Below are positions 24,501 to 27,500 of a stretch of DNA of 64,000 nucleotides, piece after piece. The first letter of the stretch is position 1. Every line of letters starts with the position of its first letter. This DNA is from Escherichia coli (GTDB lineage: Bacteria > Pseudomonadota > Gammaproteobacteria > Enterobacterales > Enterobacteriaceae). The stretch lies in NCBI RefSeq assembly GCF_044324785.1, contig NZ_CP172127.1; one strand, 5' to 3'. Made by a program: the position numbers.

Positions 24501-27500
24501 GAACTCGCGCCGATAACCAGAACCACGGTTATGCCGTTGGTCTGACCTCAAGCTGGTTTCAGCACGGTGATCAGAAGCAGGGGGCCTGGCTGGATAGCTG
24601 GCTGCAATACGCGTGGTTTAACAATGATGTTTCCGAACATGAAGATGGCGCGGATCATTACCACTCATCGGGGATTATCGCCTCGCTGGAAGCCGGGTAT
24701 CAGTGGTTACCGGGGCGTGGTGTGGTGATTGAACCGCAGGCGCAGGTGATTTATCAGGGCGTGCAGCAGGATGATTTTACCGCCGCTAACCATGCGCGCG
24801 TGTCACAATCGCAGGGGGATGATATTCAGACGCGGCTGGGTTTACACAGCGAATGGCGTACCGCTGTTCATGTCACGCCTACGTTAGATGTGAATTATTA
24901 TCACGATCCGCATTCTACGGAAATTGAAGAAGATGGCAGCACTATCAGTGACGATGCGGTGAAGCAACGGGGGGAAATAAAAGTGGGAGTAACGGGCAAT
25001 ATCAGTCAGCGAGTGTCCCTGCGTGGTAACGTGGCGTGGCAGAAAGGGAGTGATGATTTTTCCCAGACGGCGGGGTTTTTGTCGATGACGGTGAAATGGT
25101 AATCGTTGTCTGACCGGCACTATTGCCGGATGCGGCGTAAACGCCTTATCTGGCCTACGGAGAGCATTTGTAGGCCTGATAAGACGCGGCAAGCGTCGCA
25201 TCAGGCATTGGCACGGTTGCCGGATGAATCCAAACAACAAACTCACTTATTCTGCGTGTGCAGCATATAGTTCACATCGACGCCGGGGCCGAGTTTAAAG
25301 GAACTAGTGATCGGGTTGTAATGCAGCCCAGTGATATGCCGCTCTTTTAAACTGGTCTGATCCACCCAGCCCAGCAGTTCTGCCGGTTTTATAAATTTCT
25401 TCACGTCGTGCGTACCTTTGGGCACCATGCGCAAAATATATTCCGCGCCAACCACCGCCATCAGCCATGACTTGCCGTTGCGGTTAAGCGTCGAGAAAAA
25501 GACATCGCCGCCCGGTTTCACCAGTTGCGCACAGGCTCTGACCACTGACTGCGGATCGGGGACGTGCTCCAGCATCTCCATGCAGGTCACCACATCATAC
25601 TGCCCGGCATGTTTTGCCGCGTGCTCTTCCACGGTTTCCTGCACGTAATCCACCTGAATGCCACTTTCCAGCGCGTGCAACTTTGCCACCTGCAATGGCT
25701 CAAAGCCCATATCCAGACCGGTCACCGTCGCGCCTTCCCGCGCCATGCTCTCGGCCAGAATGCCGCCGCCACAACCGACATCGAGCACCTTTTTGCCAAA
25801 TAAACCGCCAGCACGCTCGGCAATATAGCCCAGACGCAGCGGGTTAATGCGGTGCAGCGGTTTGAACTCACCTTCAAGATCCCACCAGCGGGAGGCGACG
25901 GCTTCAAATTTAGCGATCTCTTCGTGGTCTACGTTATGGTTTACCGGCGATTTTTCGGCATTCATTGGCACTTCTACTCCGTAATTGGCAAGACAAACGA
26001 GTATATCAGGCATTGGATGTGAATAAAGCGTATAGGTTTACCTCAAACTGCGCGGCTGTGTTATAATTTGCGACCTTTGAATCCGGGATACAGTAGAGGG
26101 ATAGCGGTTAGATGAGCGACCTTGCGAGAGAAATTACACCGGTCAACATTGAGGAAGAGCTGAAGAGCTCCTATCTGGATTATGCGATGTCGGTCATTGT
26201 TGGCCGTGCGCTGCCAGATGTCCGAGATGGCCTGAAGCCGGTACACCGTCGCGTACTTTACGCCATGAACGTACTAGGCAATGACTGGAACAAAGCCTAT
26301 AAAAAATCTGCCCGTGTCGTTGGTGACGTAATCGGTAAATACCATCCCCATGGTGACTTGGCGGTTTATGACACGATCGTCCGTATGGCGCAGCCATTCT
26401 CGCTGCGTTACATGCTGGTAGACGGTCAGGGTAACTTCGGTTCCATCGACGGCGACTCTGCGGCGGCAATGCGTTATACGGAAATCCGTCTGGCGAAAAT
26501 TGCCCATGAACTGATGGCCGATCTCGAAAAAGAGACGGTCGATTTCGTTGATAACTATGACGGCACGGAAAAAATTCCCGACGTCATGCCAACCAAAATT
26601 CCTAACCTGCTGGTGAACGGTTCTTCCGGTATCGCCGTAGGTATGGCGACCAACATCCCGCCGCACAACCTGACGGAAGTCATCAACGGTTGTCTGGCGT
26701 ATATCGATGATGAAGACATCAGCATTGAAGGGCTGATGGAACACATTCCTGGGCCGGACTTCCCGACGGCGGCAATCATTAATGGTCGTCGCGGTATTGA
26801 AGAAGCTTACCGTACCGGTCGCGGCAAGGTATATATCCGCGCCCGTGCTGAAGTGGAAGTTGACGCCAAAACCGGACGTGAAACCATTATCGTCCACGAA
26901 ATTCCGTATCAGGTGAACAAAGCGCGCCTGATCGAGAAGATTGCGGAACTGGTAAAAGAAAAACGCGTGGAAGGCATCAGCGCGCTGCGTGACGAGTCTG
27001 ACAAAGACGGTATGCGCATCGTGATTGAAGTGAAACGCGATGCGGTCGGTGAAGTTGTGCTTAACAACCTCTACTCCCAGACCCAGTTGCAGGTTTCTTT
27101 CGGTATCAACATGGTGGCATTGCACCATGGTCAGCCGAAGATCATGAACCTGAAAGACATCATCGCGGCGTTTGTTCGTCACCGCCGTGAAGTGGTGACT
27201 CGTCGTACTATTTTCGAACTGCGTAAAGCTCGCGATCGTGCTCATATCCTTGAAGCATTAGCCGTGGCGCTGGCGAACATCGACCCGATCATCGAACTGA
27301 TCCGTCATGCGCCGACGCCTGCAGAAGCGAAAACTGCGCTGGTTGCTAATCCGTGGCAGTTGGGCAACGTTGCCGCCATGCTCGAACGTGCGGGCGATGA
27401 TGCTGCGCGTCCGGAATGGCTGGAACCAGAATTCGGCGTGCGTGACGGTCTGTACTACCTGACCGAACAGCAAGCTCAGGCGATTCTGGATCTGCGTTTG

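Follow-up and report, generated by a model that had tools for sequence, protein, structure and literature searches.

The gyrA gene of this Escherichia coli strain carries TTG instead of TCG at codon 83, and the resulting Ser83Leu (S83L) substitution in DNA gyrase subunit A is best explained, with a high degree of confidence, as a genuine and recent mutation giving first-step quinolone resistance. The gene lies within a 64,000-nucleotide stretch of contig NZ_CP172127.1 (assembly GCF_044324785.1), hereafter the window, for which an earlier reading of the letters alone (the sequence-only reading) had called the substitution, its first-step character and its likely selective origin. The change is present at the expected position, is derived within its lineage, is reproduced in independent assemblies and recurs on many E. 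coli backgrounds, and it interrupts a protein that is elsewhere under purifying selection.

The sequence-only reading had placed the start of gyrA at 26112, and the ATG found there indeed opens an 875-codon reading frame; with its stop codon, the coding sequence occupies 26112–28739 on the + strand. The product scored 1308.2 bits against the NCBIfam GyrA equivalog TIGR01063 (cutoff 877) and 1256.5 bits against a second GyrA model, NF004043 (cutoff 902), whereas the ParC models remained below their own cutoffs (577.8 versus 628.9 for parC_Gneg, TIGR01062), arguing that the protein is GyrA rather than ParC. The gene order ubiG-gyrA-yfaA reproduces the K-12 neighborhood b2230–b2232, in which gyrA is b2231, and databases name the 875-residue protein "DNA gyrase subunit A [Escherichia coli]" (UniRef A0A0D0MLT5_ECOLX). 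Tyr122, the catalytic residue for DNA cleavage, is intact (26475–26477, +; residues 119–125 are AMRYTEI), and a motif search located the GyrA box QRRGGKG, the element that tells gyrase apart from topoisomerase IV, at residues 560–566 in the C-terminal domain (27789–27809, +). When the 64-kb window was searched by tblastn with GyrA, gyrA was the sole GyrA/ParC-like coding region detected, and parC therefore lies outside the window, as had been claimed.

Counting from the start codon (26112 + 82 × 3 = 26358), codon 83 occupies 26358–26360 (+). Direct reading and comparison with K-12 both showed TTG (Leu) at this codon, where the wild type has TCG (Ser); the change falls on base 26359 (C>T), and the conversion of TCG to TTG is a single-step transition. 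Codon 87 (26370–26372, +), which specifies the second bridge-anchoring residue, is the wild-type GAC (Asp), and the sequence-only reading was thus right about both codons. The QRDR, which spans codons 67–106, corresponds to 26310–26429 (+), and its alignment with the reference gyrA, which had been proposed as a check, was carried out; the translation differs from that of K-12 at residue 83, where K-12 has S. It had also been anticipated that an offset in the residue numbering might invalidate the assignment. This objection failed, as GyrA residues 1–263 aligned with solved E. coli GyrA chains (3nuh_A, 6rks_A and others) without gaps and with residue 1 opposite residue 1, the single mismatch in the 263-residue alignment being L in the window against S at residue 83; the numbering is therefore free of any offset. 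Every other reported resistance position (A51, A67, G81, D82, A84, D87, Q106, A119 and R462) is wild type, which is consistent with the first-step status assigned to the mutation. The second gyrA QRDR substitution that marks a multi-step, high-level genotype, at Asp87, is absent, and S83L is the sole amino-acid change in GyrA.

The extent to which the protein is otherwise conserved became apparent from the comparison with gyrA of K-12 MG1655 (NC_000913, b2231). The two genes differ at 54 of 2,628 nucleotides, and 53 of these differences are synonymous, the one amino-acid change being S83L; the window protein is the same as K-12 GyrA in all other respects. Given that approximately 76% of sites are non-synonymous, the neutral probability of observing one replacement or fewer in 54 changes is about 9e-32. 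The position of the lone replacement on the classic hot spot is thus not attributable to chance, and GyrA is under extreme purifying selection that is broken at the hot spot alone.

Relatives of the window in draft assemblies were located by exact-protein look-ups of the variable neighbors YfaL and YfaA. The closest relative found, L009 (GCA_044702345.1, retrieved via YfaL), is the same as window 16344–30102 over all 13,759 bases except 26359, where L009 has C and the window T. The YfaA look-up yielded three independent assemblies from different submitters, namely L030 (ENA ERZ28576316, a metagenome-assembled scaffold), L032 (GCA_018347485.1) and L034 (GCA_014749445.1), each a 100% match to the window across 7,289 bases that include TTG. 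Three other members of the same lineage (L031, L033 and L035) have TCG and show 1–3 differences in 7,289 bases. Because L009 differs solely at 26359 and these other TCG relatives are near-identical to the window, the C>T change behind S83L is of recent, derived origin, and the lineage still carries both codons. The sequence-only reading had taken the substitution as a sign that the source strain had been under quinolone selection. The claim of selection is supported, with the qualification that, since lineage-mates carry the same allele, it may have been an ancestor, and not the source isolate, that was under selection.

No close relative of the window was found among 5,425 RefSeq complete E. 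coli genomes, in which the best gyrA identity was 98.9% and the best identities for the flanks were 98.3% (window 1–25000) and 97.7% (28800–52000); CP031609 is 99.78% identical to the window in the ompC region. A matrix of gyrA distances shows the window allele to be deep-branching, yet it falls inside the E. coli range, and the E. coli locus L011 lies further out. The nearest complete-genome gyrA allele, that of WP4-S18-ESBL-07, is 28 nt away and scores level with that of an O7:H15 ST70 strain. A Shigella origin, considered for want of a close E. coli match, is unlikely, as the 64 kb contain one IS and the genes in K-12 order look intact. One of 5,426 complete E. coli assemblies had no gyrA match and another has gyrA on a plasmid-labelled replicon; both are probably assembly or labelling oddities.

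From yfaY through ccmC, the window has the gene order of K-12, reversed in orientation, and several features of this region and of the related loci were recorded alongside the gyrA analysis. An IS3-family IS at 41304–42741 lies between rcsC (38439–41288, +) and rcsB (42810–43505, −), which we take to be adjacent in K-12; its terminal inverted repeats are 28 nt long, its two transposase ORFs lie at 41349–41879 and 41984–42706, and it is 98.8% identical to E. coli copies annotated as "IS3-like element IS1397 family transposase". At 38165–38438 the window lacks the ato operon, which in K-12 is atoSCDAEB, and rcsC follows directly after yfaP. Because about half of 20 comparison loci share this ato-less layout, the others having atoB (thiolase), the presence or absence of ato is a common polymorphism. 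An intact ORF of 1,539 codons at 31114–35733 encodes a YfaS-type alpha-2-macroglobulin, for which the gene calls in related loci range from 1,464 to 1,534 residues; yfaS is, we presume, annotated as a pseudogene in K-12. A LysR-family regulator gene at 13807–14706 (−), adjoined by an MFS transporter gene at 14858–16048 (+), is likewise intact, and the C-terminus of its product matches the 68-residue NCBIfam profile NF007272. We believe this profile to have been modelled on the short K-12 gene yfaH, in which case K-12 would keep a mere remnant of the regulator.

Two small RNAs were found in their expected E. coli contexts: MicF (46462–46555, −; Rfam, 116.8 bits), upstream of and divergent from ompC, and naRNA4/CssrE (54595–54677, −), which scored 60.4 bits, just above the Rfam gathering score. 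Window 1–25000 includes multi-copy sequence, with a median of 26 matching places per E. coli genome; candidates for its source are an Rpn-family nuclease/ISNCY-like gene (5859–6818, −), REP elements and the repeats of the yfaL autotransporter gene. In other E. coli, structural variants occur around gyrA: L022 (15082–22628) and L023 (15083–22389) carry a lambdoid prophage encoding integrase, Exc, RecT, Gam, Kil and CIII just after yfaT/magC, and L026 has a three-gene insert at 6296–9775, between ubiG and gyrA, that encodes a GntR regulator, an MFS transporter and an enolase-superfamily enzyme. In L036 (1–2800), a gene called upstream of yfaA encodes IS1 transposase domains, in sequence that fails to match the window gyrA.

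The S83L protein of the window is widespread, and S83L ranks among the most frequent of all known resistance mutations. In the assembly collection, the exact 875-residue sequence (K-12 GyrA with S83L) is listed in 14,067 blocks and the wild-type protein in 60,297, and the identical S83L protein was present on at least 1,000 contigs. Ten S83L loci retrieved by exact-protein look-up all have TTG (10/10) on backgrounds that are 95.4–98.0% identical to the window, which argues that S83L has arisen recurrently and independently. We also counted exact matches to 61-base QRDR-core haplotypes in the 5,425 complete E. coli genomes; these haplotypes cover 4,505 genomes, and as the other 920 carry haplotypes that were not enumerated, the S83L frequencies that follow are lower bounds. 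On the window-type background (GTT85/CGT91), 2,012 genomes are wild type, 411 have S83L only and 1,371 have S83L with D87N. On the K-12-type background (GTC85/CGC91), where the count covered the first two of these classes, 639 are wild type and 72 have S83L only. S83L-only haplotypes are therefore present on two synonymous backgrounds, and S83L alone accounts for at least 483 complete genomes (411 + 72), or at least 9%. In any combination, S83L is found in at least 34% of the 5,425 genomes. The commonest mutant haplotype among those counted is S83L + D87N, with at least 1,371 genomes.

How the substitution would confer resistance can be proposed from published work. According to crystallographic and biochemical studies, quinolones bind through a water-Mg2+ bridge to GyrA residues 83 and 87 in helix-4, and substitutions at these residues impair the bridge and hence drug binding (PMC4838383). 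The C>T change at the second base of codon 83 puts Leu in the place of Ser83 in helix-4. Ser83 and Asp87 anchor the bridge that holds the C3/C4 keto-acid of the quinolone in the gyrase-DNA cleavage complex; Leu83 would be unable to make the bridge contact, and weaker drug binding and reduced trapping of cleaved complexes would be expected. The enzyme itself is predicted to remain functional, with Tyr122, the GyrA box and the remaining sequence unchanged.

The phenotype that we infer for the strain likewise draws on the literature. In isogenic derivatives of ATCC 25922, S83L alone moves the ciprofloxacin MIC from 0.008 to 0.25 mg/L (PMC5635686, Table 1), whereas S83L combined with parC S80R gives 0.5 mg/L, and the further addition of D87N gives 2 mg/L (PMC5635686). 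Clinical isolates with S83L alone showed zones of 6–10 mm for nalidixic acid and 17–29 mm for ciprofloxacin (PMC12211035, Table 1). The reduced susceptibility that the sequence-only reading attributed to S83L is thus backed by published data (PMC5635686, PMC12211035). The expected phenotype would be nalidixic acid resistance together with an approximately 30-fold rise in the ciprofloxacin MIC, a low-level and usually sub-clinical effect, and S83L would represent the usual first step to high-level fluoroquinolone resistance.

Explanations other than a recent, selected mutation in this lineage were weighed against these data. The single-base gap between the window and L009 resembles an isolated base-call error, in which case the true base at 26359 would be C and the strain would be wild type. 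An error of sequencing or assembly, which had been named in advance as a ground for rejecting the S83L call, is nevertheless extremely unlikely, because the same T is found in L030, L032 and L034 on the identical 7,289-base background reported by different submitters, because the probability of a random error producing T at exactly base 26359 is approximately 1/(13,759 × 3) = 2.4e-5, and because no homopolymer or repeat context was seen in the sequence around this base. Another possibility is that this lineage received TTG from a different S83L E. coli through homologous recombination over a short tract, which would affect the origin of the allele and leave its function as proposed. The S83L alleles of L010, L012 and L015–L018 match the window over up to 536 bases around codon 83 (gyrA nt 1–536), and a recombination tract shorter than about 536 bases would be traceless; however, L009, with TCG, is otherwise identical to the window over 13,759 bases, one C>T transition at a hot spot requires fewer assumptions, and S83L normally recurs by de novo mutation. 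We regard such an import as improbable.

A different question is whether the substitution, if real, owes its presence to quinolones. S83L could be neutral or hitch-hiking, or could be favored through some effect other than resistance, for instance on supercoiling or fitness. Several lineage-mates carry the allele, and drug exposure of the isolate itself is unnecessary to account for it; moreover, S83L is generally reported to carry little fitness cost and could persist without drug. Against this, GyrA has no other replacement beside the 53 synonymous differences, which makes a neutral change very unlikely, and the same codon change occurs on at least 10 unrelated backgrounds and in at least 34% of complete genomes, often followed by D87N, as fits drug-driven stepwise selection. 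The isogenic rise in ciprofloxacin MIC is 32-fold with S83L (PMC5635686). An origin unconnected with quinolone selection is, in our judgment, very improbable. At the level of the lineage, S83L might be kept as a balanced TTG/TCG polymorphism, might have had several origins, or might reflect very short recombination imports, for reasons beyond drug exposure (for example, a fitness effect linked to supercoiling); this reading is also distinctly improbable. We favor a recent C>T mutation in gyrA that provides the first step of quinolone resistance, and from the literature we infer that exposure of the strain or of an ancestor to quinolones was the selective agent.

The mutation in the window corresponds to the canonical E. 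coli gyrA S83L (TCG>TTG), the classical nalA-type allele, with which it shares the gene, the residue, the codon change and the protein. There is no difference from the canonical allele at the protein level, whereas the nucleotide background is that of a lineage without a close relative among the RefSeq complete E. coli genomes searched. The multi-step genotype (gyrA S83L + D87N and parC S80I, with or without E84V) has its first mutation in common with the window, but differs in that Asp87 is wild type in the window gyrA; parC, as described above, lies outside the window, as do parE, gyrB, marR/acrR and plasmid-borne genes such as qnr, which would also bear on the level of susceptibility. The gyrA D87N/G/Y alleles, including the laboratory allele gyrA96, affect the same helix-4 and act through the same water-Mg2+ bridge mechanism (PMC4838383), yet they change residue 87, which is unchanged in the window, while the window changes residue 83. 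More distant counterparts are found in another protein or organism. Equivalent substitutions are ParC S80I in E. coli, GyrA S83F/Y in Salmonella and GyrA T86I in Campylobacter, in each of which a hydrophobic residue takes the place of the homologous Ser/Thr bridge anchor.

The S83L substitution in the window is real, was correctly interpreted, and was already known. Nothing in it is new to biology: how the mutation acts and how it is distributed have been established for decades, as has the mutation itself, and thousands of public assemblies contain the identical protein. For annotation and surveillance, its value is that the strain can be flagged, by genotype, as resistant to nalidixic acid and less susceptible to fluoroquinolones, and that the source strain stands one step along the usual route to clinical fluoroquinolone resistance.
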